Below are positions 1 to 64,000 of a stretch of 64,000 bases of DNA, piece by piece. The translations under genes and the position numbers were made by a program. The notes under the pieces were generated by a model. It did no database searches. It was not told the origin of the DNA and worked only from the letters and a program-made list of their open reading frames with translations. Within the stretch, counting starts at the first letter, position 1. Every line of letters starts with the position of its first letter. This stretch comes from Isurus oxyrinchus (lineage: Eukaryota), in the NCBI GenBank assembly GCA_026770705.1, contig JANJGN010000034.1, positions 5,890,001-5,954,000 of the forward strand, written 5' to 3'.

Positions 1-94
1 AACGAACTACTCGCTAACACATTGAATTTAGAAATAAAACGTACGTGATGGTTAAGAATGATATGTTTGGTGATATAGTTTATGCAAGAGGTCT

Positions 95-400
95 TGTGAC
101 GACGTTGTGGTGTCACAACTTTAGACCAGAAGCTCTGGGTTCAAGTCTTACTTCAGGAATTGATGGCTGTTGAAGCTGCTTTTGTAAGGTGGCCGGCTGT
201 ATTGCTTAGGAACTTGTCAAACCTTCCAATGTGCCTGGCAGCAGGTGCTCAGTTCGGGGGAGATGCTGGACAGCCAGGTTTTAGAAAGCAACGTCAAATG
301 ACTGTCGTACTTTGACAAGCATAATCATGACCACATCCAGTGGAAACGCATGATCACAAACACCGTCTGAATACAAGCTAGCTGAAAACTAGGAATGAAA
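95..400 (+). mobile_element. Decayed tRNA-derived SINE-like element (also ~29675-29980 and ~56900-57210)
   Basis: B-box-like gggttcaagtc at ~137-147 after an A-box-like tgtggtgtca. No cloverleaf. Confidence 0.4.
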
Positions 401-1283
401 TAACATATGTGGTACGTTGTTCTGGTGGAGGATAGCCTTCGGCATGGGACACTTGATTGGACGGACAAATATTTTCCTCTTATTTATATTGGTCGGACCG
501 CCTTCTCAGTGTCGAATTCCATGGACTTTTTTTTTGGAAATGCAACTCACTCCAAATACGCAAGGTGAAAAGACAGAGGGCTCGCTATAGTTGATCGGTG
601 ACGTGCCTAAACAGGGAAAAGGACTGTGTATCTGCTTAAATAATGTAATTGAACAATCGTTGACAGGAAGAACTTGGCAAAGTCCCGCAGGAAAATTAAG
701 GCTGCAAAAGCATTTGTAGCACAGTTGTGCATGTTAATTTGCAAACACAAGCACGGTGCATGTGCAATGTCTTATATTTTAAAGCATGCACAATATGCAA
801 TATAATATCCTAAAGTATGCCATGCAACTATTGGATTACCGTCTTGCGGAGATTTAATGTGATGTCCCTGTATATTATTGCACAATCTGTACTCAAGTAA
901 GGTTAGCGATGCCAGCCTTGCCCTTAATGATACTGCAACGCCGACATTCTGCTCTTCCTTAAAATGCAGTACGAATTGGCAGCCCAATTTAGACCTCGTA
1001 TTTTTATGAATATGATAAAAGGATCAGCTGATGTAAATACTCTGCCGTTATTTATGTTGAGTTTAAGTAGGCGCTTCACGTGAAGCGAGCGGCAGTGCCT
1101 ATGGGTAATATGGAATGGGATATGTCGAAGTATGGAGTGCGTGGAAGGACATAATCCACTCTTTCGAATACATTGACCTGTACTATAAATTCTGCTTAAT
1201 AAGTCGGGAGGGCGGGTGGGAAGAAATGGGAAAACGTGCTGAAATTGAAATAATGGTGAAACTTTCACATCTCACCATTTTAG

Positions 1284-1319
1284 AGATTCTAACGTGTCAA
1301 GAGTCTTTAAAGGATTCAG
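1284..1319 (+). CDS. Micro-exon E1 copy 1, 36 nt, EILTCQESLKDS
   Basis: ctcaccattttag|agattct...ggattcag|gtggga. Same peptide in all 3 copies, only synonymous changes. Confidence 0.85.
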
Positions 1320-4300
1320 GTGGGAAACATATTTGGCATTTGTGTAAAATTGCCGCTGAACAAAATATTCCAGCATTTACTAGCCCACACATAGAATACC
1401 GTAATTTTAAATGTAAAGATGTAGATTTTGCCTGCATCATATAATTGTCTAGCAAAGAAAGAGGGCAATCCTCCACCGTGCCTGTAACTGCTATATGAAT
1501 GGGTTTTATCCCTCTCCATCTCTAACCCTCTCATTTTCTATCTCTCTGAATTTATCTGCGTTCCAGAAGTCTTTTTACACAACCTTGCAAATGCTTGTTC
1601 TGCACAATAAGGTGTTGCTCTCCGCCAACCCCTCAGCCCCTCCCTATGCTTTGTCTATAAATAACCTTAAATCGGTGTTTCCTTGTTGCTGGTCGCCTGG
1701 ACGTGGGAACCATTTAGTGTTATTTTATTTCTTAAGCATGATGGTCTGATCATATTGCACGCCATTATCATAGGGTCCATTAACCTTCTTGCCGTGATCA
1801 GAAAAAAATCAGCACCCTTCTGCCGTCCATATAACTTACGCCCCTGGTACTGTTGACTACATCTTCCCTGTGCTCCCAGCACGATTTTCGAATCATTGCA
1901 AAGCGTGGTGCTTCGAATTAGAATGTAATATGCTAAAGTGGTGCATATTAAGCAACAATTGTTGGGAAGCTGCACTGCGTGTCGACGTCTTGGTTAGATC
2001 AACATCTTCAAACGTGTTTTCTACATCAATTATTGATCCCGAATGATGTGTGGCTCTGTTAGCTGAGCTGATTGTCTGCCTGGGCGTGGAATGGACGGCC
2101 ATTGCGATTGGGTCAGTTTCAGGCTACAGTTCAGGATCATTATTTTCCTCAATATGCAGCAGCAGCTACATTATTGTGTTATTGCAGAGTTATGCACGCA
2201 GCAGCATGCTTGCTATAGCAACAGTTAAAAATTGCTATCCACCTGCAATCTACTGTCTTATCAAAAAAAAATGTCATCTGTTTCAATGATTCCACAATCT
2301 TTCTGTTATTGTCATGCCTTGACAGATGGAAAGCTGAAAGGCAAAGAAAAAGGTAGCCAGTTTAAGGATTCGCCGTTTTAAAAAGACAGATATTGACGTG
2401 TTAGGAACATATCTATGCGCCTTTTGTTGCATTGGTTAACTTCTCTCAAATAGCATTTAGCATTATTAATCAGAAGATCGGTTGAATTTGGTAATGGGCT
2501 ACATGTGGAGAAAATCTTTCAGTTTGATTTCACAGACAAAAGTGAGAGCCACTAAGACAGGAGTTTATCATTAATAGAAACTAACGCTCAGGAGGAAAGT
2601 ATTGATTCAGAAAACGGTTGGATTGTGGAATTCGCAGCTCCATGATCCATTCTTATACTGAATTTCTCAGAATGTTTTTTTTTAAGGCTGAGGATACTGA
2701 GATCCCACGAAATTCCTAACAACCTGATTTTCACAGAGTAAATTTCGTGTTGACCCTACGGAAATTTTCGTTCAGCATTCTCAACTCCGGATTAATGGAT
2801 CCTGTGCATTATTAAGCAATTTTACCTCGTGGTTGCAGTCTGGCTTAAAAACTATGACATCCAAAAATGACGATTCCTTCTCTTGAGGACACGTTCGGGT
2901 TTGGGGCCTGACTTCGGAAGGATACATGTTGCTCTCTAAATATCCAGACTGTGTTCCCTCATGTGGTTTGCAGTTGTTTCAGGGGCCATGTGCGATTGAA
3001 ATTGCTCGGCTCATTCTCTGTCATCCAATGAGCTGAATGACGTGAGAGTTTTAAGGAATGCCGTGTAGCAAACGCTGTACAGTTCCTGCACTAAATAACA
3101 AATCAAACTGATAATTCTTAGCAGAATATTAAAGCGGAGTCTCTCAAATCTGCATATACAAGCTATGTAAACAACATCCACACGCACAAAAAACATTTTG
3201 CCTAATTAAACAAAGGTGCTACAAATTACATCGAAACATTTCTAGGTTAACAGAGATTTTAACTTCTCCAACAAAGAAAATACAGGAATGAAACCATGCC
3301 AAACTCTCTTGTAAAACGCAGAAGTTCGTCACCAATAAAATGCAGTTAGTGGCGGAGAGTCAAATAATTGCAGCTGCATTCGTCTATTTAAGCTCAGTCT
3401 TCTACAGCAGTGTCGGTTCCAGACCTGATTGTAAAGAGGATTACTGGGCCAGTTTGATTGCTTTCGGTGAATATCGGGATACAATATGGAACTCTTCTGT
3501 AATCTGGACGGGGAAATATAACTGATAACCTTGACAATTCCATGATCCTTATAAACCAGTTGCTTTCTTTCTGTCTTAGAATTGAATGACATTCAGCAGA
3601 AGTGCAGTGAGTATTCCATGAGCCAGCAGCCCCCGAGGTGTGGATTTCCCGATTGATTAAAACCAGTTCTGCGGAAAGAACTTATCTGTGGACAGAACAT
3701 GTGCCTTGGGGGAGAAAATGTATTAGAGTGATGATATTAAAGCACATCCCCAAGGTATGAGGAGAAAATGTCGGAAAGGAAATTGTGGTTTTCCCTTCTT
3801 GCCTAAAGCTGCGCCGAATGATTTGCCCTCGCAGCTTCAAACTTTTTAGCTATGACTCAGTAGACAGAACTTCCAACTTGTGATCAGAAGGTTGCGAATT
3901 CAAGTCCAGAGTTAGAAGTTGAGCACAGGCACAGATGCTGACACATCGCCAGCAATGTATTGCAGGAAATGTAGCTGTTTAGTCCATAAAACGAGGTGAG
4001 GTTTGCCCTCGAAATTGGATGTAAATGACCCAATGCCACATCTGAAAAAAACAAAGGAAGTTTTCAACTGATATCATGGTGAATACTTACTATTTAATTA
4101 AACCTGTTTAATTAAGTGGTAAGTATTCACCAGGATTTGATGTTTCGCTGGTCTTGGGTTTCCTGGTGAGTCGAGCAGAACAAGTATCTGTGCTGAAACA
4201 GTTCAATCAGAGTGATCATTATATCATCTGCTTTAGGCTGGCAGATCGATCGGATGGACAATTAACATATGACGTCTAATGCAGAAAATCGCGATCACAT

Positions 4301-7300
4301 CATTTTGGTGGGAAGGACGAGCTGAGGCAATGCAAGAGAAAGTGGCAAAATGTAAATGGGTTGCAAGGTATTTACCCCGGATGTCAATGTGCACAAATTG
4401 CTCAGGGTGACAAGGTAGGTTGAATGGGCGTTAAAAAAGCATAACCAGTCCGTAAATTAAATAAAGACGGTCATATAGCACAAAGACATGTAGTTTACAA
4501 TAAATGTATAAAATATTGGGCGGGCCTCAACTAGAGAATTGTTTCCAATTCTGGACAACATTCTCCAGGAAAATGTATAGGCATTATAGAGCGTGCAAAA
4601 GTAAATTTTAAAATTACTTCCAGGGATTAAGAGCTGCCCTTAGGTGGGTAGTTTGGACAGGTGTTCTTCACTTTGGTGATCAGAATATTAAGGAACATTC
4701 TGATGGAGGTGAACATTATCATAAGGATCCAGGAGAGAGTAAACACAGGAGAGTTGCTCCGTTGGCAGGAACGGTCGAAAATCAGTAAAGACCCACTTAA
4801 GGTAATTGACATTATAAACTGTAATGCCATGAGGGAAACATTTTATTTTCCGTTGACTGCTTAGTATTTGGATTACACTGCTAACGGTGTCGAGGAGGCA
4901 TGTTCTATAGATGTTTTCAACAGAGTATTAAGTAAATATATCAGTACGAGAGTTACTTCAGAGGAGTGTTAATTGGAACAGCGGGAAAGTGGCATGAAAT
5001 AAAATTAAAATGATCCGGCACTGGCTCAACGTGTCTCTCTCTTTCTCTCTTTATCTGTCTGGCTCCTTCTCTCCCTCTCTTTCTCTCTCTCGCCCTCTCT
5101 GTATCTTCTACAGCTGATTAGAAAGAAAATAACACAGATATATAGATAGCTANNNNNNNNNNNNNNNNNNNNNNNNNNNNNNNNNNNNNNNNNNNNNNNN
5201 NNNNNNNNNNNNNNNNNNNNNNNNNNNNNNNNNNNNNNNNNNNNNNNNNNNNNNNNNNNNNNNNNNNNNNNNNNNNNNNNNNNNNNNNNNNNNNNNNNNN
5301 NNNNNNNNNNNNNNNNNNNNNNNNNNNNNNNNNNNNNNNNNNNNNNNNNNNNNNNNNNNNNNNNNNNNNNNNNNNNNNNNNNNNNNNNNNNNNNNNNNNN
5401 NNACAGTATTGGATAATTCTTTGACATTTCCGAATGACACAAGGCATGGAGGTGCGGCAAACAAACAGGTTGACAGCAAGCGACTGCAGCAAGAGATAAA
5501 TAATTGAGGAGCATAGGCATCAAGTGGCGGATCGAAAATAATGCACATAAATCTGAAGTGTTGCATTTTGGCATAACCGATAGAGGAGGCCAAATACCCT
5601 TAATGAAACGATTCTTTATTGTGCAACGGAATAGATAAGGAGGAGAGTATTTTTTAAGTTGTATTGAAATATTATAAGTGTAGCTAGCAATTTATTCGAA
5701 TTAATGGGCTTATTATGTGGAGGCATTCAGCACAAAAGTAGAAAATTGTGCATAACCTTTTCAAACGCTGGTTATGCCCCAGTTAACGTTGTGTAATCTG
5801 GCTATCAACACATATTCGGAAGGAGCGACTGATTATTAAGAGGTTGCTGAAGAGAATTGGCTGAATGGTTCCATGAATAATTGAATTTAATGACCAGGGA
5901 ACATTGTTGGACAAACGCGTGTTTTCCTTAGAACACAGAAGGCTGAGAGGAGATCTATAAGTTAATGTCAAGACTAGGTAAGGGAGAAATAGAGATCTCG
6001 TTCTGATACGCTTAAGGTACAGGGATGAGAAGGACTCAATTTTCCGCGCTGTGCACAGTCGATTATAGATTATCAGATCTGTTGGCTTTGCTAGAAAAAG
6101 TTACATGCCATTACGAATGCAACTATATATTTTAAAAAATGGAATGGAAATGGAGGACATTTGTTAATTAGAGCCTAGTTTGTGTAACTCACCATCTAGC
6201 AAGTTGGTGAAGCATTTCTCATTCAGTAATTTCACAATGAATTTAAATTAGCACATTGTCTGATTAAATTGACAGGCAGATGGTGATAGTGTGGGAAAAC
6301 CGGAATGACTGCTTGGATCTGGAGAATGCCGCATTGGTTCTGCCGGCCATAGGGCATCTGTCGCTCCGGGCCAAAGCCACCATGTGCCTCTCACTTGCCA
6401 ACCGAAATGGTCACAGAGCTGTATCAAAATCGCGACAGGAAAATTGGATAAGTGCCAAAACTGGAGAGACAAACCAGGATTGAACTATTCAACGGGTAAA
6501 ACAACGACAAATTCACCCTCTCCACCCTGCTGAAATAGCTTTACTAACAACTGGGAGCTGTTGCCAACAGTGGGAGAGATATCCCACAGGCCAGTCAAAC
6601 AACAGTCATATTTATAATCAAGGATTCAGTGTACCTGTCAAAAGCATGGCAGTCTCATCAAATGACAGACCCAGCCTAGATGACGGCGTTATAGATTCTG
6701 GATGGAAATGCAATGGGGAGCCTAAACACCGACTCCGGACCCCATGAAGTCACATGACTTCAAGCTGAACATGGGCAAGGAATCCTCCATCTGATTATCT
6801 CGTACCAAATTCCACAACCACCCTTGCATCTGATGAATCAGTAGTCTCCCATGTTAAACGTCACTTGGAGAAGCATTGAGGGCGGCAATGGTGGACAATT
6901 CACTTAAATCACCAACACCAAAAATGGCTGTGTAGCACCACTGTAGACTGAGCGAGACGAATGCAAAGAGACATAGTTGCTAGTCTGGGTCTGTGGCTGC
7001 TGGTGAGGGAGCAAACAAGAGGGGGAACCATACCTTTCCTCATCGTCAGGAACCTGCTTGGTGCTGGGGCAGGTGTCCATGAAAGTATCGGTAGGAGTGA
7101 CCACTGCACAGTCATTGTGGAGCAATTGCGGATACCATCCAACATGTGATGCCGCACCACTGAAGTGCCAAAGAGGATAAATTAGGAACAGATCAAGTAT
7201 GTCAATCTGTGGTAGTCACGAGTCTATGCGGTCCATCCACAGAAGCAGAACTATACTCAATCACAATGTTTAACCTCATGGACCGGCAAATCCAACACTC

Positions 7301-10300
7301 ATCCATTACCAGCCAGCTTGGTTATCCAGTCAGTTTCAATGAAGAGTGTAAGGGTACATTGCAGAAGCAGTACCATTCATGCCTAAAAACGAAGTGGCAA
7401 CCGGATGAAGCTACATAGCACATCTACTTGCGTTCCTGACAGCATAAGCAGCACGTGACAGACAGAGCTAAGTCATTGCAGAAACAACAGAGTAGATCTA
7501 AGCTCTGCAGCGCTGTCACGGCCAGTTTTAACTTGCAGTGGGCAATTATATAATTCACCAGAAAGAGATAATGAAATGACTCCATGCTTCTTGATGATAG
7601 AGTGCCAAGCATCGGGGAAAAATATAAGGCTCAAGTATTTACAATACGTGTCGAGTGGGTGACCCATGTCGGCCTCCTCCAGAGATACACGGCATTGCAG
7701 ATCCCAGACTTCAGCTAAGTCGATTCACCCCACGGGTTATCATGAAATGCCTGATGGAACTGGATGCTGCAAAGGCTAGGGGCACTGACAATATTCCGGC
7801 AATAGTATTGAGGATGTGCTCAAGATATTTTTTGTGCCCTTAGCCAGGTTCTTCAAGTAAGGCTACAACACAGGCATCCACCTGGCAATTTAGTCACTCA
7901 GCCAGGTATGTCTTGTGCACACAAAGCAGAGCAAATCCAAACCCACCAATTATCGTCCAATCAGTATACTACCAATCATCATTGAAGTGAGGAAAGGGTC
8001 AGGAACTGCTATTACGCAGCACTTGCTCAGCAATTACCTGCTCATTGCTCAGTTTGGGTTCGGCCAGTGTCCCTCAGTTCCTGACCTCATCACAGACTTG
8101 GTTTCAACATGCACAAAAAAGCTGAACTCCAGTGGTGAGGTGAGAGTGATTGTCCTTGAAATCAAGGCAGAATTTGGCCGATTCTTCCATCAAGGAACCA
8201 TAGCAAGACTGGAGTGTATGGGAATCAGGGGGAGAATTCTGCGTCTGTGGAATTCATTCTTAGAAGGAAGAAAGATTGTTTTCGTTGTTGGAGGTCAATG
8301 ACCAATAGTGAAAGTGCATCATTGCAGGAGTTCCTCAGGGTAGTGTTCTAGGCCCCATCATTCTCAGCTGCTTTTTCAAGGAATTCCTTCCATCATCTGT
8401 TCAGAAGTGGGGGTATTTGCTGATGACCGCACAAATTACAGCACAATTCACGACACCTTAAATAATGAAACAGCCAATTTCTAAATACAGCAACGACAAG
8501 GGCCAAGCAATGACCGCCTTCATCTAGACATTATAAAACCATCACCTTATGACAATCAATGGCAATGGCTACAAGAGCCGATTAGGGGCTGGGAACACTG
8601 CAAATTGCAACTCATCTCCTAAGGCACGAAAGCCTGTCAACAATCTACAAGGCACAGTTCATCTTTGTGATTGAATATTCCTCACTTTCCCGGCTGGGTG
8701 TAGCTCCAGCAACAATCAAGAAACTTGACAACACCCATGGCAAAACAGCCCACTTGATTGCGCCAACATCCACACATGTTCACGCCTTCCACCGGTGACG
8801 GATAGTGGCATCAGTGAATAATATCTGCAAAATGGTCTGCAGGAACTCAACAAGGCTCCTTTGGCAGCACCTTCCAAACCAGCGTTCGCTGCCGTCCGGA
8901 AGCACAAGGGCAGTAGGTCTCTGTGAACAACACGACTTTAAAGTTCCTCGACAAGTCGCTCATCATCCTGATGTGAAATATGTTGTGATTCCTTCACTGT
9001 CGTGGGATCAAAATGATGGAATCCCTCCATAACAGCACCGTGGAAGGAATACCTCAGATGGACTGTAGCACTTCAAGAAAGCAGTTCACCAGCTCATTCT
9101 CAAGGAACGTTAGAGATGGACAGCAAAAGATGTTCTCACCAGTGACCCCCAGGTCACATCAATCAATTAAAAGCGGACAAAATACAGGCTATCCGGTCAC
9201 TGTCAGGCTGATTTGCGAATGCTATAAGGAAATCAGATACTGTTTCTCATGCATAGCAAACATAACCTAAATTCTACATTGCCTGTCTCGTACTTTGGAA
9301 AATTCTGTGTTTGTAAAATGAGCAATATAGTTGCATTTCCTTCTTCCCTTCGTAAGGGGATCTGGATAGGTCATGTAATACTTTCAAGCCAATAGTGCTC
9401 TGAATACATTCTTCTGGAAATTTCCTTTTGTCAGGCTGCTTGGAGGTTCCATGTCTTTTATGAATTCCAAATAGAAAAAAACCCCTCAAGTTTTGCAGTT
9501 ACGTTTTGCAGTTAATATATCTCTGACAGAGTTTAGATGCAATGCGTGCAAAGTGCTACTATTCGTGCAATTTGCTTAAACCAAATATCGATTACATAAT
9601 TCGTTCTTCCCGTTGCTGACATATCGATGTTGCTTCGGTTTTGAACATAATGTGCACACAGAACAAAACAGGGGTCCCAGAGAAGACATGGAAACATGAT
9701 ATTAGAACCCAGCGATATACATTTTCTGAAAGATTGGCGCGGCTATCTACAAAACTGAAGTCTGAATGATGAGCTGACAGGAGTCTTAACAATTATGCAA
9801 GATTTTCTGTTGGAGCCCAGAACTTGGGACTCTAAATGAAATGAAGTCACTAGGCACCTTTGGGAAATTCGGAGTTATATCCACTCACAGGATATTTGTA
9901 ATGCGGTATCCGTACGGCAAGGTGCACTAATTTAATAGCCAACTTTCCTTGTAATGGCAAGTGTACGAGAGAGAAAGAAGTTGAATGACATTCTGATTGG
10001 GTTCGTTGAAGCCGGAGGGGCTTGTGTGTAACATAAGAACAGCTGCAGCGACTGGATGGGGTGAAGGCCTGATTGCATGCTATAGAATGGTTTTAAAGCT
10101 AAGAAACAATGAAGAGGAGATTTCAACAAAACGGGCCAACCATATATCATGAGGCATGACTTACTTGAAGATCCCCTATCAGAAAGACATTTGTCAACAT
10201 CCACTTTAGTAATGATTTAACCAAGTGTGCTAAAAGTCATAACCCTTACTTTGAATTTAATTGCTCAGTTTTAATCTAACAGGCCGTTTAAAATACGTAT

Positions 10301-55300: not shown

Positions 55301-58300
55301 CAGTCTATGCGTGCCAAAAATGTCCAGGCCCCATCGTGAATTTCAGAAGCCCCATCAAATCACCTCTCAATCATTTTGTATTTTTGTACAATGGTTTAAA
55401 ATTGTCCAATCCTTCTTTCAAGAAGAAACAATCATCCCTGGAAACATTCCCATGAATACACTCTCTACGCCCTCTAATGTCTTCACTTCTCCCTTAACTA
55501 GGATGTCTAAAATATGATACAATTCCCTAGTTGAAGTCGAAATAATGGTAAAACAGGTTTACCATCACTTATTATTTTTTGGCTGCCTATTCCTCTATTT
55601 ATAAAGCCAAGGATTTCTTCTTGTTAAGTGGCAGCATTTTGAATCTGCCCTTCGTCTTGCAACCATTTGTCCTCTTATACTCCCAAAGCCCCATCAGCAG
55701 CTTCAATCCCCTTTGGAATGCTACCACACGTTGTTCATTACCTCCTCCTACAAAAACGAATTAATTCATGCCTCTCTCTATTAATTTCACCTCCAATAGT
55801 TCCTCCTATTCCACCCTTCGATCTGCGTTTGTTTGACGTTTTTCACCATTGTCCTTGCAATTCATAGTCCTGTGAAACCTGAAAAGTGAAAATCTTAAAG
55901 TGTTGCCCTGGACAGTCATATTTAGGTCCTTCATGCATACCATGTAGACAGATTGGAAGGGGGAAACAGCATAGTTTTTGTTGGCACTTCAGTGTGGATC
56001 ATCCATTTTATGAATTACAGAACTAAGCAACTGTCAACAAGCTGTAAAAGACCTAGGTGAGCAAAACATTCCCGGTGTTGCTTTCGACTACATGCCTTAT
56101 TATTTTGAACCATTAATCAAATACGTTTATTTCATTAAAAAAGTGGTTATCAATTCAGTCACCCGTTGTTTGGCGATAGGCCCACATTCATTTCTTTTGA
56201 TTTCAATAAAAGAAAATTCTGGGCAGAAAGCAAAACAGACTGACTATCCGATCGTGGGCAGGATGAATTTCCGAGGCTACGCGTGCGTGATTATTGTTGT
56301 ATTTTGTCTCAACTCTTGCTCAGTCCTGCACACTAATGGAATGCTGAATATTGTTAACTTTATCGATTTGTTACAACGTTTGAAAAGTATTCTAACCAAT
56401 AACAAAACTCCCCTACTCCTGAAAAATGTGTTTAATCTTAGATTTTTTGATTTGTTTATCATTTAATCCCTAACAGAAGAGAAACTCAACGCAAAAGATA
56501 AAGGTACCTGAACGGACATATTTTTCCTCAAAAAGCCAGAGATTGTCAATGGCTGATTGCTTCTTTACATGATTTGTTTTGTTTGCTTAGAGATGTTTTA
56601 TGTTTGTTTTCCTACTAATCAGATTGCTAGTATGTACCCTAACGGTTGGCAGCAGAAGAATCCTCTACAAGGGTTCCATAGTTTCGACTTATGAGAGCAC
56701 AATTTCAGATGCTGTGTCACACATAGTGGTAAGACAGTAAATAACGTGAACTAATTAACTGAAAAAGGAATTCACTTATGCTCCTTAAACAAGGTAGTGG
56801 TAACAACAAAGTGTTCACTAGCACAGTGAGTTTGGAATTAAAACGCATGTGGTGGTTAGGAATTACAGAATTGCTGATAAATTTTATGGAGGAGTTCTTG
56901 TGACGCCATTGTGGTGTCATAAATTACGCCCAGAAGATCCGCGTTCAAGTCTCACTTCAGGACTTCCTGGCTGTTGAAGCTGTTTTCGTAAGGTGGCCGG
57001 CTGTATTGCTTACCAACTTGTAAAACGTTCAAATGCGCCAGGCACCAGGTGCTAAGAATGGGACAGAATGCAGGAAGCCAGCCAGAATGCAGGAAGAAAT
57101 GTCAAATGGCAGTCGTATTTTGCCAAGCATAATCATGGCCATATCCAGTGGAAATCCATGTTCACCGACACCCCATGAATGCAAGGGGTGACTGAAAACT
57201 AGGAATGAAATAATGTATGTGGTAAGTTGTTCTGGTGGAGAATAGGCTTAAGCATGGGGCACTTGATTGGATGGACAGATATTTTCCTCTAATTTATATT
57301 GATTGGTCTACCCTCTCGCTATCGAAATCCATAGACTTTTTTTTTTCCGAAATGCATGACATTCCAAAATCGCATGGAAAAAAGACTGAGTGCCCTCTTT
57401 CTTTGATCGGCGATGTGCTAAACCAGGGTGAAGCACCGAGTGTCTAGTTAAATAATGTAATTGAACAATAGTTAAAGGGAAGAACTTGGCAAATTCCCGC
57501 AGAAAAACAAAATCTGCAAAAACATTTGATTCCACGCTTCTGCAAGTTAATTTGCAAACAGAAGCTCGGTGCATCTTACTAATAGAGACTTACCGCGCCG
57601 TTAAAGATGGAAGTATGCGATGTCTTATTTTTTAAGCATGTATAATATGCAAGTGAAATATCCTAAAACATGCCATGCAACTATTGGATGAACATCTCGG
57701 GGATATTGAATGTCACGTCTCTGTATGATATTGCACAATCTGTACTCAAGTAAGGTTACCAATGCCAGCCTTGCGCTTCCTGCTACTGCAACCCCGGCAT
57801 TCTGTTCTTCCTTAAAATGCATTAAGAAATGGTGGCACAAATTAGACCTCGTATTTTTTGAATATGACACAAGGATTAGCTGTGGGAAATATTCTGCCGT
57901 TATTTATGGTTAGGATAAGTAGGTGCCTCAGGAGGAAGCGAGCCCGAGTACATATGGGTGATATAATATGCAACATGTCGAAGTATGGAGCGGGTGGAAG
58001 GACATAATCCAGTTTTTCGAATACACTGACCTGTACTGAAATTCTGCAAAGTAAGTCGGGAAGGTTGGTCGGAGGGAGATGGGGAAACGTGCTGAAATTA
58101 AAGTAATGGTGAAACTCTCACATCTCACCAATTTAGAGATCCTAACGTGCCAAGAGTCTTTAAAGGATTCAGGTGGGAAATATATTTGCTTTTTTGTGTA
58201 AAATAGCCACTGCACAAAATATTCCAGCAATTCCTAATCCACACGTGGAATACAGAAATACCGATCAGTAATTTTAAATGTACAGATGTAGATTTTGCCT

Positions 58301-60433
58301 GCATCATATAATTGCCCAGCATAGCAAGAGGGCAATCCTCTACCTTGCCTATATCCCACTCCATATCTCTCTCCCTCTCTCATTAGCTGCGTTCTAGAAA
58401 ACTTTTCACACAACCTTCCAAATGCTTGTTCTGATCAATAACGTGTTGCTCCCCCTCAACCCCCTGCGCCCCACCCTAAGGTTTGTCTATGAATAACCTA
58501 AAATCTGTGTTTCTTTGTTGCTGGTCTTCCTGGACGCGGAAACCATTTATTGTTCTTTGATTTCTTAAGAATGATGGTCTCATCATATTGGGCGTAATTA
58601 TCATAGAGTCCATTAATCATCTTGCCCTGTTCAGAAAAATCTCACCTCCCTTCTGCTGTGTATATACCTTACGTCCAGGGTACTTTCGATTAAATCTTCC
58701 CTGTGCTCCCAACACGATTTGCGAAGCATTGCAAAGCGTGGTGCATCGCAATTAAATACAATATCCTAAAGTGGCGCATATTAAACAATAATGATTGAGA
58801 AGCTGCACTAAGTGTCGACGTGTTGGTTAGAAGCACATCTTCAGCAGTGAGTTCTCAACGAATTACTGATTCCGACAAATGCGTGGTTCTTTTACCTGAG
58901 CTTGTCCTCTGGCTGGGAGGGAATGGACGGCCATTGCGATAATTTCAGTTTCACGCTACTGTCCAGGATCATTATATGCCACAATATTTAGCATCATATA
59001 CATTAGTGTGTTGTGTGCAGAGTTATGCACGCAGCAGCATGCTTGATATAGCAACAGTTAAAATTCTCATCCACCTGCAAACGTGTGCCTTATCATATAA
59101 AACGTCAACTGTTTCAATGATTCCACAATCTTCTTGTTAACGTCATGCCTTGACAGAAACAAAGCTGAAAGGCAGAGAGAAAGGTAGACAGTTTAAGGAT
59201 TCGCTATTTTAAAAAGACAGATATTAACTTATTAGGGAAATAACTATGCACCTTTGTTTGCTGATTAACTTCTCTCAAATAGCATTTAGCTTTATTAATC
59301 GGAAGATTGGTTGAATTTGTTAACGGGCTTTTTGTGGAGAAAATCTTTCAGCTAGTGGTCGTGGCCATAATTGAGAGCCAGCAAGATAGGAGTTTAACAT
59401 TCATAAAAACTAACAGTCAGGAAAAAAAAACATTGCTCCAGAAAACTTTTAGAATGTGGAATTAGCTGCTACATGATCTTTTCGTATACGGAATTTCACT
59501 GCATTATTTAAAGCTGACAACACCGAGATTCCACGAATGTTCAATCGACCTGATGATCATGGAGTGTATATCGTGTTGTCCCCTCGAAAATTTTAGTTCA
59601 GCATGGTCAACTCCAGATAAATGGCTCCTGTGCATTGTTAAGCAAGTTTACGTCGTGCTTGCAGACTCGCTGAAAGACTAGTACTTCCAAACAATGGCGA
59701 TGCATTCCCTTGAGGATATGTTCGGGCTTTGGGTCCTTATTTCAGATGGATACATATTGATCTCTGAATATCCAGACTGTGTTCCCTCTGGTGCTTTGCA
59801 GTCATTAAAGAGGCCATGTGTGATGGAAATCGCTCGATGAATTCTCTGTCAGTCAACGAGCTGAAAGGCGTATGAGATTTAAGAAATGCTGCGTAGCAAA
59901 CGCTGTCCAGTCCATGCACGAAATAACAAATCAAACTGATCATTCTTCAAAGAATATTAAAGCGGAGTCTCACAAAGCTGCACATAGAAGCTATGTAAAC
60001 AACATCTACATGCACAAAAACATTATGCCTAATTTAACAGAGGCGCTACGAATTACATCGAAACATTTCTAGCTTAGCACGGATTTTAAGTTCTCCAGCA
60101 AAGAAAATTCACGAATGAAACCATGCCAATGTCTCTTGTAAAACGCAGAAGTTCGTCATGAATAAAATGCAGTTAGTGGAAGAGAGTGAAATAATTCCAG
60201 TTGCATTCCCCTATTCAATCTCAGTCTCTAACAGCAGTGTAGGTTACAGACACGATTGTTGACCGGATTGTTGGGCCAGTTTGATTGCTGTCTGGGAATG
60301 TAGGGATATAAAATGGAGCACTTCTGTAATCTGGACGAGGAAAGGTAACTGCTAACCTTGACAATGCCATGATCCTTATAAACCAGTTGTTTTCTTTCTG
60401 TCTTAGAATTGAATGACATTCAGCAGAAGTGCA
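1284..60433 (+). CDS. Internal part of a multi-micro-exon gene for a long Cys-containing coiled-coil protein (31 exons, 870 nt, ~290 aa in window; both ends outside)
   Basis: 31 AG..GT exons of 15/27/36 nt, all phase 1/1, join without stops into a sequence with 3-4 hydrophobic periodicity. Copy 1 vs copy 2 exons differ at 29/390 nt with no indels or stops, while introns carry many indels. Confidence 0.85.
2326..2352 (+). CDS. Micro-exon E2 copy 1, 27 nt, DGKLKGKEK
   Basis: gccttgacag|atggaaag...gaaaaag|gtagcc. Splice sites kept in 3 copies. Confidence 0.8.
3580..3606 (+). CDS. Micro-exon E3 copy 1, 27 nt, ELNDIQQKC
   Basis: ttctttctgtcttag|aattg...agtgca|gtgagt. 27/27 identical in all 3 copies. 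Confidence 0.9.
3848..4110 (+). mobile_element. Decayed tRNA-headed SINE with a Deu-domain-like body (also ~33418-33680 and ~60676-60950)
   Basis: A-box-like tgactcagtag and B-box-like gaattcaagtcc, then gttgagcac...gctgacac...taaaacgagg...tgccctc...gatgtaaatgaccc. Resembles DeuSINE cores as I remember them. Confidence 0.55.
4230..5035 (+). mobile_element. Decayed CR1-type LINE, RT C-terminal/3' fragment (also ~33780-34500 and ~61050-61860)
   Basis: Degenerate motifs: NAEK.....HFGGK at 4277-4315, RPQLENCFQFW at ~4520-4555, a CR1-like 3' end. Stops and frameshifts. Confidence 0.7.
5153..5402. other. N run (250 nt) beside a TC/GATA microsatellite; homologous N runs at 34606-34809 and 62012-62169
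   Basis: Directly visible; flanks read gatatatagatagcta and tagatagata. Confidence 0.95.
5405..6010 (+). mobile_element. Decayed CR1-type LINE RT fragment (also ~34810-35190 and ~62170-62760)
   Basis: cgactgcagcaagagata...aagtgg...aatgcacataaatctgaagtgttgcattttggc resembles LQ.DI...KW...NA.K.EVLHFG; ctgagaggagatcta reads LRGDL. Confidence 0.7.
6500..9172 (+). mobile_element. Decayed non-LTR retrotransposon (CR1/L2-group APE+RT ORF2 with 3' tail); only the 3' end remains in copy 2 (~35190-35620); 5' part in copy 3 (~63260-64000)
   Basis: ORF 7915-8301 has NYRPISIL, QFGF and VIVLEIKAEF. GVPQGSVLGP starts at 8327 and FADD is at 8416-8427. Many stops and frameshifts. Confidence 0.85.
10762..10788 (+). 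CDS. Micro-exon E4 copy 1, 27 nt, KGDLWDKDS
   Basis: attctctcttgcag|aaggag...gattcag|gtaaac. Identical in copy 2. Confidence 0.88.
11391..11426 (+). CDS. Micro-exon E5 copy 1, 36 nt, EINDLQTKLQKC
   Basis: cacattttcag|aaataa...aatgcg|gtgagt. 36/36 identical in copy 2. Confidence 0.9.
11580..12840 (-). mobile_element. Highly decayed L2-like LINE fragment (also ~38040-39290)
   Basis: Minus-strand H.LDL...R motif (ORFs 12165-12413 and 38618-38866), similar to the end of an APE endonuclease domain. Otherwise weak. Confidence 0.4.
13267..13293 (+). CDS. Micro-exon E6 copy 1, 27 nt, DENLKAVVK
   Basis: tttcacccttcaacag|acgag...gtaaaag|gtactg. Copy 2 differs by D>E plus one synonymous change. Confidence 0.8.
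15380..16320 (-). mobile_element. CR1-type LINE 3' fragment (also ~41850-42770)
   Basis: ORF 15502-15726, DRMDVERMFPLVGESRTSGYHLKIR...FFSQ...LWNCLPQSAVEAGSL, is a typical CR1 ORF2 C-terminus. Confidence 0.85.
17600..20310 (+). mobile_element. Long, highly decayed CR1-type LINE (also ~44060-46710)
   Basis: IPQESLLALLLLNIRFNGFDYGVRNSISKFGASSKMG (ORF 19609-19896) is a degenerate VPQGSVLGP..F...INDLD.G....ISKFADDTK.G. CR1-like 3' tail at ~20150-20310. Confidence 0.65.
20721..20747 (+). CDS. Micro-exon E7 copy 1, 27 nt, ELSDLQQKC
   Basis: ttttctttttccttag|agctc...agtgca|gtaagt. Paralogous to E3. Confidence 0.88.
22219..22245 (+). CDS. Micro-exon E8 copy 1, 27 nt, KADLDQKDE
   Basis: gttactcttgcag|aagctg...gatgagg|gtaaag. 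Paralogous to E4. Confidence 0.85.
22931..22957 (+). CDS. Micro-exon E9 copy 1, 27 nt, EIGKKIGEL (probably ancestrally 36 nt from 22922, EMQEIGKKIGEL)
   Basis: Strong donor ttag|gtgagt. The pyrimidine tract ends in tacaa rather than tacag; the next AG (gcaag) is 9 nt downstream and in frame. Confidence 0.65.
   Translation, partial: KSARKLES
23895..24005 (+). mobile_element. Old Penelope-like terminal-repeat fragment shared by the copies (also ~50452-50570)
   Basis: aaacagaaaatgctggcaaaac...ggtctggcagcatctgcggaga is similar to the younger inserts at 49556 and 50788. Confidence 0.55.
24521..24535 (+). CDS. Micro-exon E10 copy 1, 15 nt, ENVKK
   Basis: tttcctttaccgattcacag|aaaatgtaaagaagg|gtatgt. 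Copy 2 differs by one synonymous change. Confidence 0.78.
25138..25173 (+). CDS. Micro-exon E11 copy 1, 36 nt, ELSTCQDTVKDV
   Basis: tttctctccgccttgcag|agctaag...gatgtag|gtgagt. Copy 2 has 2 synonymous changes plus V>L. Confidence 0.9.
26135..26149 (+). CDS. Micro-exon E12 copy 1, 15 nt, DQLKK
   Basis: gatttgtttcacag|atcaattaaaaaaag|gtaagt (consensus donor). Confidence 0.82.
26600..27450 (+). mobile_element. Decayed RTE-clade LINE 3' fragment (also ~53700-54650, which keeps ~120 bp more, including an SRI.LISHLR Zn-knuckle-like end)
   Basis: GH......IRLP.Q.....G.R..G.QR.....VLK.NM.K (ORF 54250-54540) matches the RTE ORF C-terminal pattern. Confidence 0.65.
27780..28520 (-). mobile_element. 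Decayed CR1-type LINE 3' end (also ~54990-55770)
   Basis: Begins catagatcggttacagcagagagagaggccatcgggc, the reverse complement of a CR1-type tail, followed by antisense RT C-terminal-like sequence. Confidence 0.5.
28787..28822 (+). CDS. Micro-exon E13 copy 1, 36 nt, ELSNCQQAGKDL
   Basis: ttttgaattacag|agctaag...gacctag|gtgagt. Paralogous to E11 and E1. Confidence 0.88.
29252..29278 (+). CDS. Micro-exon E14 copy 1, 27 nt, EEKLNTKEK
   Basis: taatcccaaacag|aagaaa...gagaaag|gtacct. Paralogous to E2 and E6. Confidence 0.8.
30877..30912 (+). CDS. Micro-exon E1 copy 2, EILTCQESLKDS
   Basis: ctcacctttttag|agattc...ttcag|gtggga. One synonymous change vs copy 1. Confidence 0.85.
31904..31930 (+). 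CDS. Micro-exon E2 copy 2, ETKLKGKEK
   Basis: gccttgacag|aaacaaag...gaaaaag|gtaggc. Confidence 0.8.
33149..33175 (+). CDS. Micro-exon E3 copy 2, ELNDIQQKC
   Basis: tttctgtcttag|aattg...gtgca|gtgagt. Confidence 0.9.
37241..37267 (+). CDS. Micro-exon E4 copy 2, KGDLWDKDS
   Basis: atctcccttgcag|aaggag...gattcag|gtaaac. Confidence 0.88.
37839..37874 (+). CDS. Micro-exon E5 copy 2, EINDLQTKLQKC
   Basis: cacattttcag|aaataa...tgcg|gtgagt. Confidence 0.9.
39711..39737 (+). CDS. Micro-exon E6 copy 2, EENLKAVVK
   Basis: tttcacccttcaacag|aagag...gtaaaag|gtactg. Confidence 0.8.
47107..47133 (+). CDS. Micro-exon E7 copy 2, ELHNIQEKC
   Basis: tttacttttcctcag|agctcc...agtgca|gtaagt. Confidence 0.85.
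48574..48600 (+). CDS. Micro-exon E8 copy 2, KNDLDQKDE
   Basis: gtaactcttgcag|aaaatg...gatgagg|gtaaag. Confidence 0.85.
49259..49285 (+). CDS. Micro-exon E9 copy 2, EFGKKVGEL (36-nt form would start at 49250)
   Basis: ttattttacaaaaatgcaag|aattcgg...attag|gtgagt. Same tacaa as copy 1. Confidence 0.65.
   Translation, partial: NSARKLEN
49556..49777. mobile_element. Copy-2-specific Penelope-like inverted-repeat insertion with TSD
   Basis: Arms 49621-49682 and 49700-49759 are near-perfect reverse complements. Flanked by aagtattagcgcca (49542) and aagtattagtgtca (49778). Empty site at ~23215 in copy 1. Confidence 0.8.
50788..51279. mobile_element. Copy-2-specific Penelope-like inverted-repeat insertion (~490 bp) with TSD and hammerhead-like motifs
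   Basis: Arms ~50821-51040 and ~51050-51279. Flanked by gagaattatgaata (50774) and gacaattatgaata (51280). Empty site gagaattttgaata at ~24213 in copy 1. Confidence 0.85.
51589..51603 (+). CDS. Micro-exon E10 copy 2, ENVKK
   Basis: tttactgattcacag|aaaatgtaaagaaag|gtatga. Confidence 0.78.
52216..52251 (+). CDS. Micro-exon E11 copy 2, ELSTCQDTVKDL
   Basis: ctctccgccttgcag|agctaag...gatttag|gtgagc. Confidence 0.9.
53217..53231 (+). CDS. Micro-exon E12 copy 2, AKLKK
   Basis: gatttgtttcacag|ctaaattaaaaaaag|gtaagt. Confidence 0.82.
56021..56056 (+). CDS. Micro-exon E13 copy 2, ELSNCQQAVKDL
   Basis: tttatgaattacag|aactaag...gacctag|gtgagc. Confidence 0.88.
56477..56503 (+). CDS. Micro-exon E14 copy 2, EEKLNAKDK
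   Basis: taatccctaacag|aagaga...gataaag|gtacct. Confidence 0.8.
58137..58172 (+). CDS. Micro-exon E1 copy 3, EILTCQESLKDS
   Basis: ctcaccaatttag|agatcc...ttcag|gtggga. Two synonymous changes vs copy 1. Confidence 0.85.
59157..59183 (+). CDS. Micro-exon E2 copy 3, ETKLKGREK
   Basis: gccttgacag|aaacaaag...gagaaag|gtagac. Confidence 0.8.
60407..60433 (+). CDS. Micro-exon E3 copy 3, ELNDIQQKC
   Basis: ttctttctgtcttag|aattg...gtgca|gtgagt. Confidence 0.9.
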
Positions 60434-61888
60434 GTGAGTATTCCATGAGCCAGCAGCCACCAAGGTGTGGATTTCCCGATTGATTTCAAAGCCTGTGATG
60501 TTGAAAAAAACTTATCCGTGGACAAAACGTGTGCCTTGGGGACAAAATTTATTCGAGGGAGGATATTAAAGCACATCCCAAAGGCATGAGGAGAAAATGT
60601 CTGAAAGCGAACAGCGTTGTTAGCTTCTTCCCTAAAGCTGCGCCGATTGTTTTGTCCTCACAGATTCCAGCTATTTGGCTGTGACTCAGTTGACAGAACT
60701 TGCAACTTGTGGTCAGAAGATTGCAAATTCAGTCCAGAATTAGAAGTTGAGCGCATGCGCAGATACTGACACGTCAGTGCAGCCCTCAGGCAGCATGGAA
60801 TGCCGGAAGTTTAACCGTTTCATCCATAAAACGAGGCGATGTCTGCCGTCGAACTTGGAAGTAAATGACCCAATGCCACATTTGCCATCAACAAAGGGAA
60901 GATTTCAACCGATGTCCTGGTGAATACTTACCACTTAATTAAACCTCACATGACAAGATTTCTTTGGTGGTCTTGACGGCCCTGGTGAGTCGGCTGCAAC
61001 AAGTATCTGTGTCGAAGCAGTTCAATCAGAGTGGTCCTTGTATAGCCATCTTTATGTTGGCAGATGGATCAGACGGAGAATTGAAAGATGATGTCTAACG
61101 CAGAAAATTGCGATCAAACCACATTGGTGGGAAGGACAAGGTGAGGCAATGCAAGAGAAAGTGTCAAAATCTAAATGGGTTTTACGGTATTTACCCCCGG
61201 ATAGCAATGTGCACAAAATGCTCAGGGTGACAAGGCAGGTTGAATGGGCGGATAAAAAGCAAAACCGGTCCCTAAATTTATGAACGACAGTCATATAGCA
61301 CAAAGACATGTGGGTTACAATAAATTTATAAAATACAGGGCGGCACTCAACTAGAGAATTGTTGCCAATTCTGGACAACATTCTTCAGGAAAATATATGG
61401 GCATTATAGAGCGTGCAAAAGTATAATTTCAAATTAATTCCAGGGATGAGGAGCTGTACTTACATGTGCACAGATGTGCTTCACCTTGGTGATCAGAATA
61501 TTAACGAACTATCTGATAGAGGTGAACATAATCATTAGGATCCCGGAGAGAGTAAACACGGGAGAGTTGCTCCGTTGGCAGGAACGGTCGAAAATCTGTA
61601 GAGACCGAATTAGGGTAATTGACATAATAAACAGTGATGCCATGAGGGAGACATATACTTTTCCAGCGAGTGGTTAGTATTTGGATTATACTGGTAACGA
61701 TGTCGTGGAGGAATGTTCTATAGACGTTTTCAACAGAGTATTAAATAATTATATCAAGAAGGGAGTTACTTCGGAGGAGTGTTACTTGGAACAGCAGGAC
61801 AGTCGGATGAAATAAAATTAATAGAGAGATCCGGCACTGGCTCAAGATATCAGATGGTCTCTTTCTCTATCTGTCTGGCTCCCTCTCT

Positions 61889-61930
<42 letters not shown>

Positions 61931-64000
61931 TCCTCTCAATATGTTATATAGCCGATTAAATAGAAAACGAGACAAATATATAGATAGATAAGTCGATAGA
62001 TTGTTAGATATNNNNNNNNNNNNNNNNNNNNNNNNNNNNNNNNNNNNNNNNNNNNNNNNNNNNNNNNNNNNNNNNNNNNNNNNNNNNNNNNNNNNNNNNN
62101 NNNNNNNNNNNNNNNNNNNNNNNNNNNNNNNNNNNNNNNNNNNNNNNNNNNNNNNNNNNNNNNNNNNNNAGTATTTTGACAATTCTTTAACACATCCGAA
62201 TGACACAAGGCATGGAGGTGCAGCAAACAAACAGGTTGATATTAAGCGACTGCAGCAAGAAAAAAATAGTTGAGCAGCATAAGCATCAAGTGGCGGATCA
62301 AAAGTTATGCACATAAATATGAAGAGATGCTTTTTGGCAAAACCAATACAGGAAGGCAAATACCATTATTTCTGTGTGCAACTGAACAGATAAGGAGCAG
62401 AATATTTTTGAAGTTGTCGTGAAATATTATAAGTGTACCTATCAAGTTATTCGGATTATTGGGCTTAATATGTGGAGGCGTTCAGCACAAAAGTTGAAAA
62501 TTGTGCATAGCCTTTTGAAGCTCAAGTTATGCAGCAGTTAACGTTGTTGCATCAGGTTATCAACATATATTTGGAAGGAGCGACTGATCATAAAGAGGTT
62601 GGTGAGGAGAATTGGCAGAATGGTTCCATGTACAAGTGAATTTAACGACCAAGGAACATTGGTCACGAACGTTTGTTTTCCATAGTGAATGGAAGGCTGC
62701 GAGGTGATCCATAAGTTAATATCAAGGTTAGGGAAGGGAGAAAAAGAGATCCCGTTCCTGTATGCTTAAGGTACAGGGATGACGAGGACACAATTTTCCG
62801 TTTTGTGCACGGGTGATTATAATATGTTGAAGATGTTATCTTTGCAAGCAATACTTACATGCCATGGACGAATAGATAAAAATATTTTTAAAAATTAGAA
62901 TAGAGGGGGAGGACCTTTGTTAATTAACTCACCATCTAGTAAGTTGCTAAAATAATAGTCATTCAGTAATTTCAAAATGAAATCAGCATGGGCTGATTAA
63001 TTCGACAGGCAGACGGTTATAGTGTTGGAAAACAGGAATGACTGCTTGGCCCTAGAGAATGCCGTATGGGTTCCACCGGCCTTAGGGCATCTGATGCTCC
63101 GGACCTGTGGCCTCAAACCCTCCATATTTCTGTTACTTGCCATCAGAAATGCTCAATGAGTTGTATTAAAGGCTTCACAGAAAATTGGATAAGGGCCGAA
63201 ACTGGAGACACACATCAAGATCGAACTAGTCAAAGGCTTAAACAACGACAATTTCAGCCCTGTTGACCCTTCTAAGATAGCTTGACTAAAAACTGGGGGC
63301 TGGTGGCAAAGTGGGAGAGGTATCCAACAGTTCAGTCGAACAGCAGTCATATTTATAATCAGCGATTCACCGTTCCTGTCAAAGGCATGGCAGGGCCATC
63401 AGTCGACAGGCCCAGCCTAGATGGCAGTGCTATAGCGTATGGATGAAAGTGCAATAGGGACCCTTAATACCGTCACATGACATCAAACCAAACATTGCTG
63501 AGGAAACGTCCTGCTGTTTACCTCGTACTGCAGTCCACACCCACCCTTGCAGCTGAAGAATCAGTACTCTTCCATGTTAAACGCCACTTGGAGAAACATA
63601 GAGGGTGGCAATGGCGGACAATTCGCTTCCATCACCAACACGTAAAATGTCTTTGTAGCACCACCGTAGCGTGAGCGATACGAGTGCGAAAGGACATACA
63701 TGAGAGGCTGGATCTGTGGCTACTGGTCAAGGGAGTAAAGAAGAGAGGGAATGAACCACAGGAAACTGCCTGCTGCTGAGGTGTCTGTCCATGAAAAGAA
63801 TCGTTTGCAGTTACCACTGCACAGTCATTGTGGAGACATTGTGGATACCGACCAACTTGTGGCGCCGCATTACCACCGTGCCAAAGAGGATAATGTAGGA
63901 ACACATCAAGCAGGTAAAGCCGAGGTAGTCATGAGTCTATGTGGTCCATCAGCAGAAGCAGAACTGTACTCAATCAAAATGTTTAACCTCATGGCCGGGC

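Follow-up and report, generated by a model that had tools for sequence, protein, structure and literature searches.

Introduction

Duplication of exon blocks inside giant genes is a known mechanism, exemplified by nebulin and titin. The triplicate region of nebulin is given as eight exons present three times and the PEVK segmental duplication of titin as nine exons present three times, with unequal recombination proposed as the cause (PMC7863720, PMC9142044, PMC9109913); human titin is credited with 363 exons (PMC11931755, PMC9142044). Here we describe an array of this general kind in the shark Isurus oxyrinchus. The window, a stretch of 64,000 nucleotides (nt) at positions 5,890,001-5,954,000 of contig JANJGN010000034.1 (hereafter C34), belongs to a ten-copy tandem array that quite probably sits within a single 1.5-Mb gene, whose more than 400 phase-1 exons of 15-36 nt would encode a coiled coil, 4,100 or more residues long, and a C-terminal B30.2 (PRY-SPRY) domain. 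As in nebulin and titin, a multi-exon block is repeated head to tail in one giant gene and would lengthen a filamentous protein, more exons of the same gene flank the array, and the frame is kept across the junctions. Unlike the nebulin and titin regions, whose repeats closely resemble one another and whose copy number still varies, the shark units are 82-85% identical and frozen, and they form ten copies of 26-30 kb with exons of 15-36 nt, encoding a predicted coiled coil with a B30.2 head. We found no description of a rod-B30.2 micro-exon family, most subscription journals and supplements lying outside the search; nor did the literature searched contain the scale, the host gene family or the parallel expansion reported here.

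Coiled coils made from many tiny, split-codon exons are known from chicken BG genes. Their long tails, which vary in length, derive from 27-37 exons of 21 nt, each opening with a codon that is shared with the exon before (PMC5938342, PMC8813856). The shark gene is built in the same manner, its roughly 33 exons of 21 nt coming closest to BG tails, but it has more than 400 exons, mostly of 27 and 36 nt. BG proteins possess an immunoglobulin (Ig) V domain and a membrane segment and lack B30.2; the shark gene carries B30.2, and neither an Ig nor a membrane exon was found in the regions scanned (see below). Butyrophilins, the conventional members of which are covered by PMC12841164, share with the shark gene a heptad region followed by a C-terminal B30.2 domain, and the best solved-structure matches are to BTN3A1. 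They differ in having a few heptads rather than hundreds, and in IgV, IgC and membrane exons that we did not find in those regions. The predicted protein would resemble the inner part of a butyrophilin or a chicken BG, minus the Ig and membrane parts. TRIM proteins are distinguished by an N-terminal RING and B-box, found neither upstream of the shark gene nor in six scanned chondrichthyan relatives. Closest in B30.2 sequence, and similar in rod repeats, are chondrichthyan coiled-coil and SPRY database models; these are 230-945 amino acids (aa) long, and their TRIM- or A33-type labels imply a RING and B-box that they lack. Enterophilins combine a cytosolic leucine-zipper rod of about 30 heptads with B30.2 and are not known to carry Ig or RING domains.

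Results

Ten tandem units of 13 micro-exons

Self-comparison of the window revealed colinear copies, arranged head to tail, displaced by about 26.4-29.6 kb and by 56.8 kb, with 78-89% identity per aligned piece. This bears out a preliminary description, made from the letters of the window, that had recognised at least three such copies. Searched against the 4.98-Gb genome, a 601-base probe gave ten matches at 25-30 kb spacing and one more about 1 Mb away. Counted on the wider scaffold, as the preliminary description had proposed, the array extends over C34:5,884,262-6,163,694 and consists of exactly ten head-to-tail units, each 25.6-29.7 kb long. Identity between units is 82.1-84.8% across all 45 pairs, and the longest run identical between any two of them is 81 nt. 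An assembly artefact was rejected: the copies are 15-18% different, and a relative carries orthologous pieces of units 1 and 2.

Unit junctions fall at 23,682 and about 50,244 of the window, which holds 29 exon copies: eight from unit 1, all 13 of unit 2 and eight from unit 3.

1..23682, + strand: unit 1, 3' part (the unit starts 5.7 kb left of the window)
23683..50244, + strand: unit 2, complete, about 26.6 kb (right end good to a few bases)
50245..64000, + strand: unit 3, 5' part

The exons were found as AG...GT segments conserved across units. Each unit has 13, of 15, 36, 15, 36, 27, 36, 27, 27, 27, 36, 27, 27 and 27 nt in this order; all are phase 1-1 and sum to 372 nt, or 124 residues. 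At the standard coiled-coil rise of 0.1485 nm per residue, one unit would add about 18.4 nm of predicted coiled coil. A splice-site model recovered the 13 exons in all ten units, whereas any other distinct candidate came up in seven at most, and joining the 13 across all ten units produced no stop. The continuity of the frame between exons and units claimed in the preliminary description thus stands, as do its tandem blocks; the block size of 27-30 kb must be revised as above, and 14 exons, about 130 aa and 19-20 nm per unit give way to the values just listed. What it took for the border between two units, the joint of its exons E14 and E1 (window 29278 to 30877), is a normal intron internal to unit 2.

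1284..1319, + strand: unit 1 exon 6, 36 nt, phase 1-1
2326..2352, + strand: unit 1 exon 7, 27 nt
3580..3606, + strand: unit 1 exon 8, 27 nt
10762..10788, + strand: unit 1 exon 9, 27 nt
11391..11426, + strand: unit 1 exon 10, 36 nt
13267..13293, + strand: unit 1 exon 11, 27 nt
20721..20747, + strand: unit 1 exon 12, 27 nt
22219..22245, + strand: unit 1 exon 13, 27 nt, last before the unit junction
24521..24535, + strand: unit 2 exon 1, 15 nt, first after the junction
25138..25173, + strand: unit 2 exon 2, 36 nt
26135..26149, + strand: unit 2 exon 3, 15 nt
28787..28822, + strand: unit 2 exon 4, 36 nt
29252..29278, + strand: unit 2 exon 5, 27 nt (E14 of the preliminary description)
30877..30912, + strand: unit 2 exon 6, 36 nt (E1 of the preliminary description)
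31904..31930, + strand: unit 2 exon 7, 27 nt
33149..33175, + strand: unit 2 exon 8, 27 nt
37241..37267, + strand: unit 2 exon 9, 27 nt
37839..37874, + strand: unit 2 exon 10, 36 nt
39711..39737, + strand: unit 2 exon 11, 27 nt
47107..47133, + strand: unit 2 exon 12, 27 nt
48574..48600, + strand: unit 2 exon 13, 27 nt
51589-51603, 52216-52251, 53217-53231, 56021-56056, + strand: unit 3 exons 1-4
56477-56503, 58137-58172, 59157-59183, 60407-60433, + strand: unit 3 exons 5-8

Two candidates for a fourteenth exon were rejected. One, of 27 nt (19782..19808, + strand; copy at 46183-46209), is deleted in unit 7 and has lost its AG in unit 8; the other, of 48 nt (23158..23205, + strand), contains a stop in unit 8 and has lost both splice sites in unit 9. 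A non-exonic stretch at window ~25,010-25,065 (unit-1 positions 1045-1100), about 70-130 nt upstream of exon 2, is conserved like the exons (divergence 0.035 over ten units) and is possibly a splicing element. Around the unit 2/3 junction (window 49568-51280) there are two insertions, along with short pieces of direct and inverted repeats. An open frame at window 7894-8298, presumably a remnant of a reverse transcriptase of a long interspersed nuclear element, is present in seven of ten units and deleted from the others.

A run of micro-exons closed by a single B30.2 exon

Exons of the same type flank the array for about 1 Mb upstream and about 230 kb downstream. An iterated splice-site model called 427 non-overlapping candidates on the + strand of C34:4.877-6.395 Mb (1.52 Mb), against 15 on the reverse strand, a control that understates false hits since the model was trained on the + strand. 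By size, 215 candidates are of 27 nt, 146 of 36, 33 of 21, 26 of 15, and seven are others; they sum to 12,339 nt, about 4,113 residues, and their median spacing is near 1.9 kb. K, L, E and D abound in the inferred rod chain, which contains 12 prolines and 153 cysteines and has a hydrophobic period of 3.46-3.59; in the 36-nt exons cysteine and leucine occupy a common position. A block of mostly 21-nt, one-heptad exons lies at C34:5,084,784-5,302,910, in a gene otherwise of 27- and 36-nt exons.

The run closes with a terminal phase-1 exon that carries a stop (C34:6,395,820-6,396,339) and encodes B30.2/SPRY (PF00622, E 2e-13); the best solved-structure matches of this domain are to the B30.2 of BTN3A1 (E 7e-20). 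Four related B30.2 exons occur on C34, at 2.71, 3.47, 4.82 and 7.50 Mb, none inside the array. Because the exon type continues on both sides and the sole B30.2 exon to end the run is found 232 kb downstream of the array, the genomic evidence supports an intragenic array rather than a gene cluster. Repeats inside one gene, and units devoid of a termination exon, had both been proposed in the preliminary description; the flanking run and the single terminal exon support the former, and the lack of a B30.2 terminal exon inside the array agrees with the latter.

Which proteins are related? The closest named ones are RefSeq models of skate, catshark, electric ray, chimaera and basking shark, with B30.2 identity up to 55% (XP_038671249.1, XP_055510696.1, XP_038672306.1, XP_069775384.1, XP_042191566.1), labelled TRIM39/58/69-like or zinc-binding protein A33-like. 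SPRY is the only Pfam domain in the six chondrichthyan relatives among 34 proteins scanned, with no RING, B-box or Ig. Against the inferred rod, the catshark protein XP_038671249.1 (945 aa) scores 80.5 bits at full length and 53.9 bits with its first 760 residues, compared with at most 23.9 in 20 shuffles. A family-type B30.2, shared rod repeats and SPRY as sole domain in these database models place the gene in a chondrichthyan micro-exon coiled-coil and B30.2 family. A search with the single B30.2 for longer homologues gave none at E 1e-20. Folding of the skate relative from its sequence alone was of low confidence (pLDDT 45), and the model was set aside.

The micro-exon pattern accompanies all five B30.2 blocks of C34. 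Five related genes of this kind lie in a row at C34:2.71-7.50 Mb, two in minus and the other three in plus orientation, and fill about 4.8 Mb. On C21, two B30.2 exons at 89.7-91.3 Mb are nearer to the rod-B30.2 family than are other matches there, and one micro-exon pattern match lies at 90.25 Mb, near a butyrophilin Ig-C cluster.

Exons are intact in every unit

The preliminary description had noted intact exons in all copies, and on the genome AG, GT and full length are indeed kept in 130 of 130. Relative to simulations with the intron substitution spectrum, which predicted stops in 20.6 exons and broken splice dinucleotides in 43.4, none of either was seen; indels were likewise absent (about 16 expected). 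Of 12 large deletions, none touches any of the 13 exons, although 5.0 hits would be expected (P 6e-4). As the exons were first chosen by conserved AG/GT and presence across copies, there is some circularity in these counts of zero and in the result on deletions. A non-circular check is provided by the sister gene described below, in which 125 of 125 homology-mapped exon copies are intact. Divergence from the consensus is 0.050 in exons and 0.099 in introns, and the exon ratio of nonsynonymous to synonymous differences (pN/pS) is 0.58. Purifying selection keeps every exon spliceable and open.

A sister gene has expanded the same segment independently

A sister gene occupies C34:6,433,690-7,496,959, with a common upstream block from 6.434 Mb and a B30.2 exon at 7.497 Mb that is 91-92% identical; about 0.31 of its roughly 1.06 Mb was read. 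It is 76-81% like the host gene, compared with which 241 kb of 5' exons have been deleted. It retains the 3' part of the unit as a single copy that continues directly into the right flank, which fixes the ancestral state. At 7.00-7.17 Mb the same segment has undergone a nested expansion: a four-exon, 42-residue block occurs 17-18 times and larger blocks occur 5-6 times, with copies ~79-92% alike. The homologous interval there encodes 1,237 residues versus 302 in the single-copy template, a gain of 935; the host gene gained 9 x 124 = 1,116 residues, provided that all exons are spliced in. At the rise used above, these gains would amount to ~139 nm in the sister gene and ~166 nm in the host gene. 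The two expansions are independent and used different units. Two explanations offer themselves: a tendency of the segment towards unequal crossing-over, or an advantage of longer rods in the two genes alike.

History of the array

All nine junctions share one common breakpoint, with microhomology of at most a base or two, and this marks one founding duplication. The unit tree is star-like, with tips of 0.08-0.10 and inner branches of 0.001-0.011; units 1 and 2, and units 9 and 10, are sisters with support 100, and adjacent units are on average barely closer than others (83.0% vs 82.7%). Some neighbouring units being sisters, pure rolling-circle amplification is disfavoured. DNA contigs of a relative are 93-96% like units 1 and 2 (for instance, 49 differences over 1,018 nt and 20 over 456 nt), against 83% between units, so that at least these two units predate that split. 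With a longest identical run of 81 nt, there has been no recent homogenisation. Pairwise identities, identical runs and the relative's contigs together agree with the earlier view that the copies are old and not homogenised.

We propose the following course. A founding duplication with an intronic breakpoint, evident from the common junction, would have been followed, soon after the gene duplication, by a short burst of unequal crossing-over to ten copies, consistent with the star-like tree and its few neighbouring sisters; the array then froze while divergence and deletions accumulated, as the short identical runs show. Any intronic breakpoint is frame-safe because every exon is phase 1-1 and of a length divisible by three. 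A single transcript probably runs through all units and would yield a continuous coiled coil of about 0.6 micrometres, and the protein probably serves as a very long tether or spacer with a ligand-binding B30.2 head. Its predicted size is about 4,300 residues, and the cysteines of the core would let it form cross-linked oligomers. A cytosolic location appears the most probable; secretion is appreciably less so, and membrane anchoring is the least favoured of the three.

The 5' end

Motif, hydrophobicity and paralogue-conservation scans of C34:4.817-4.90 and 6.396-6.46 Mb gave nothing convincing as a start exon, promoter, signal peptide or membrane segment. No Ig domain matched in 52 + strand frames of at least 82 aa in C34:4.816-4.88 Mb, a result that holds only if the gene starts after 4.817 Mb, nor in 146 of the 174 frames that precede the sister gene. 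The butyrophilin Ig-C domain (PF22705) has 37 matches, mainly on C21 and none on C34:2.7-7.5 Mb, and no RING or B-box was found in the frames upstream of either gene. The N-terminus of a skate relative had no match in the genome, and the 5' region of a minus-strand paralogue (3.37-3.48 Mb) shares only repeat-like pieces. A 33-nt first-exon candidate at C34:4,865,441 was discarded, as it abuts an interspersed repeat. An exon-like segment of 81/82 nt at C34:4,834,522-4,834,602 and 6,440,394-6,440,475 keeps both splice sites, its lengths one base apart, and is a candidate 5' exon. One skate model opens with a hydrophobic stretch, which may be read-through of an intron pyrimidine tract. A weak 7tm_1 match between the two genes (E 8.5e-5) is below the cut-off.

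Discussion

Several observations weigh against a single giant gene under strong constraint. Exon joining is predicted from genomic sequence; at least one candidate must be wrong, since one joint in the list of 427 yields a stop, and 51.7 kb at C34:5.108-5.160 Mb are without called exons. To these may be added the lenient reverse-strand control, the partial circularity of the zero counts, and a pN/pS at which residues are weakly constrained. AATAAA is kept in at least nine of ten units at three intronic places (a count not compared with chance), database relatives are just 230-945 aa long, and the 5' scans produced no convincing start. No RNA run was listed for the terminal exon, and the reads of two presumed RNA runs over window 14600-34500 fell mostly on repeats (9 and 6 of 30 bins covered) and on no exon-exon joint; none of this is evidence on expression.

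Does selection act on rod length itself? The preliminary description had suggested so. Purifying selection on exon integrity is upheld, while length selection as such is not established by the intact exons, which ordinary purifying selection explains because the B30.2 domain could be severed by a frameshift, a stop or the loss of a splice site. That longer rods were selected is plausible, and the best hint of it is the parallel gain in the sister gene. A serious competitor, to which we would give somewhat less than an even chance, holds that a crossing-over-prone segment expanded, that the extra length was merely tolerated and that selection acted only against loss of B30.2; the anatomy would be the same. 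Symmetric phase-1 exons render any block duplication frame-safe, pN/pS is high enough to fit, and expansion of the same segment in both paralogues is expected of a fragile site; the loss of 241 kb of 5' part by the sister gene and further internal duplications of many ages point the same way. Yet clean single-exon skipping would keep the frame, and still no splice site was lost in 130 + 125 copies; the large deletions all spare exons, and both genes halted at about +1,000 aa and then froze.

Less probable is a splice-tuned length, in which the exons form a pool from which transcripts take subsets, the array widening the range of rod lengths while no single product uses all of it; optional exons should decay now and then, but none of the 13 did so in any unit. 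We regard it as doubtful that a single transcription unit, with a first exon further upstream that might encode a signal, Ig or membrane segment, uses the three + strand blocks with B30.2 ends (C34:4.82, 6.40 and 7.50 Mb) as alternative 3' ends. Although neither gene has a convincing first coding exon in the 50-60 kb before its first micro-exons, a 22-kb upstream block with the 81/82-nt exon-like segment and both its splice sites is common to both genes at 76-79%, none of the 37 butyrophilin Ig-C matches lies on C34:2.7-7.5 Mb, and RefSeq relatives start with their own Met. A cluster of ten paralogous genes, each unit having its own start and end, is very improbable in spite of gene-sized units of 26-30 kb, the three conserved intronic AATAAA and one phase-0 frame of at least 40 codons behind a conserved AG, for no exons besides the 13 internal phase-1 ones pass in every unit, no SPRY exon lies in the array, and the segment, in its ancestral single-copy state, belongs to the interior of a longer series of exons. 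The flanking exon run already contradicts such a cluster.

The single-gene reading, if splicing proceeds as predicted, would place the locus among the most exon-rich vertebrate genes and raise the question of how several hundred micro-exons are joined across 1.5 Mb at such spacing. Because its exons are of 15-36 nt, annotation is likely to miss or fragment it. The independent lengthening of one segment in two sister genes, whose copies are frozen and can be dated, offers a natural test of rod-length selection. More tentatively, more than 400 exons, against 363 in titin, might encode a single B30.2-tipped coiled coil of about 0.6 micrometres, and each of the two sister genes might have gained its ~1,000 residues in the same position, roughly simultaneously and from unrelated units, through selection for longer, perhaps length-matched partner rods.

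The array is accompanied by other intragenic duplications. A second one, at C34:6,259,927-6,333,016, spans about 35-40 kb at 81-83% identity and appears to be as old as the array. Three regions, at 5.11-5.17, 5.24-5.31 and 5.75-5.77 Mb, contain older duplications of 64-75% identity.

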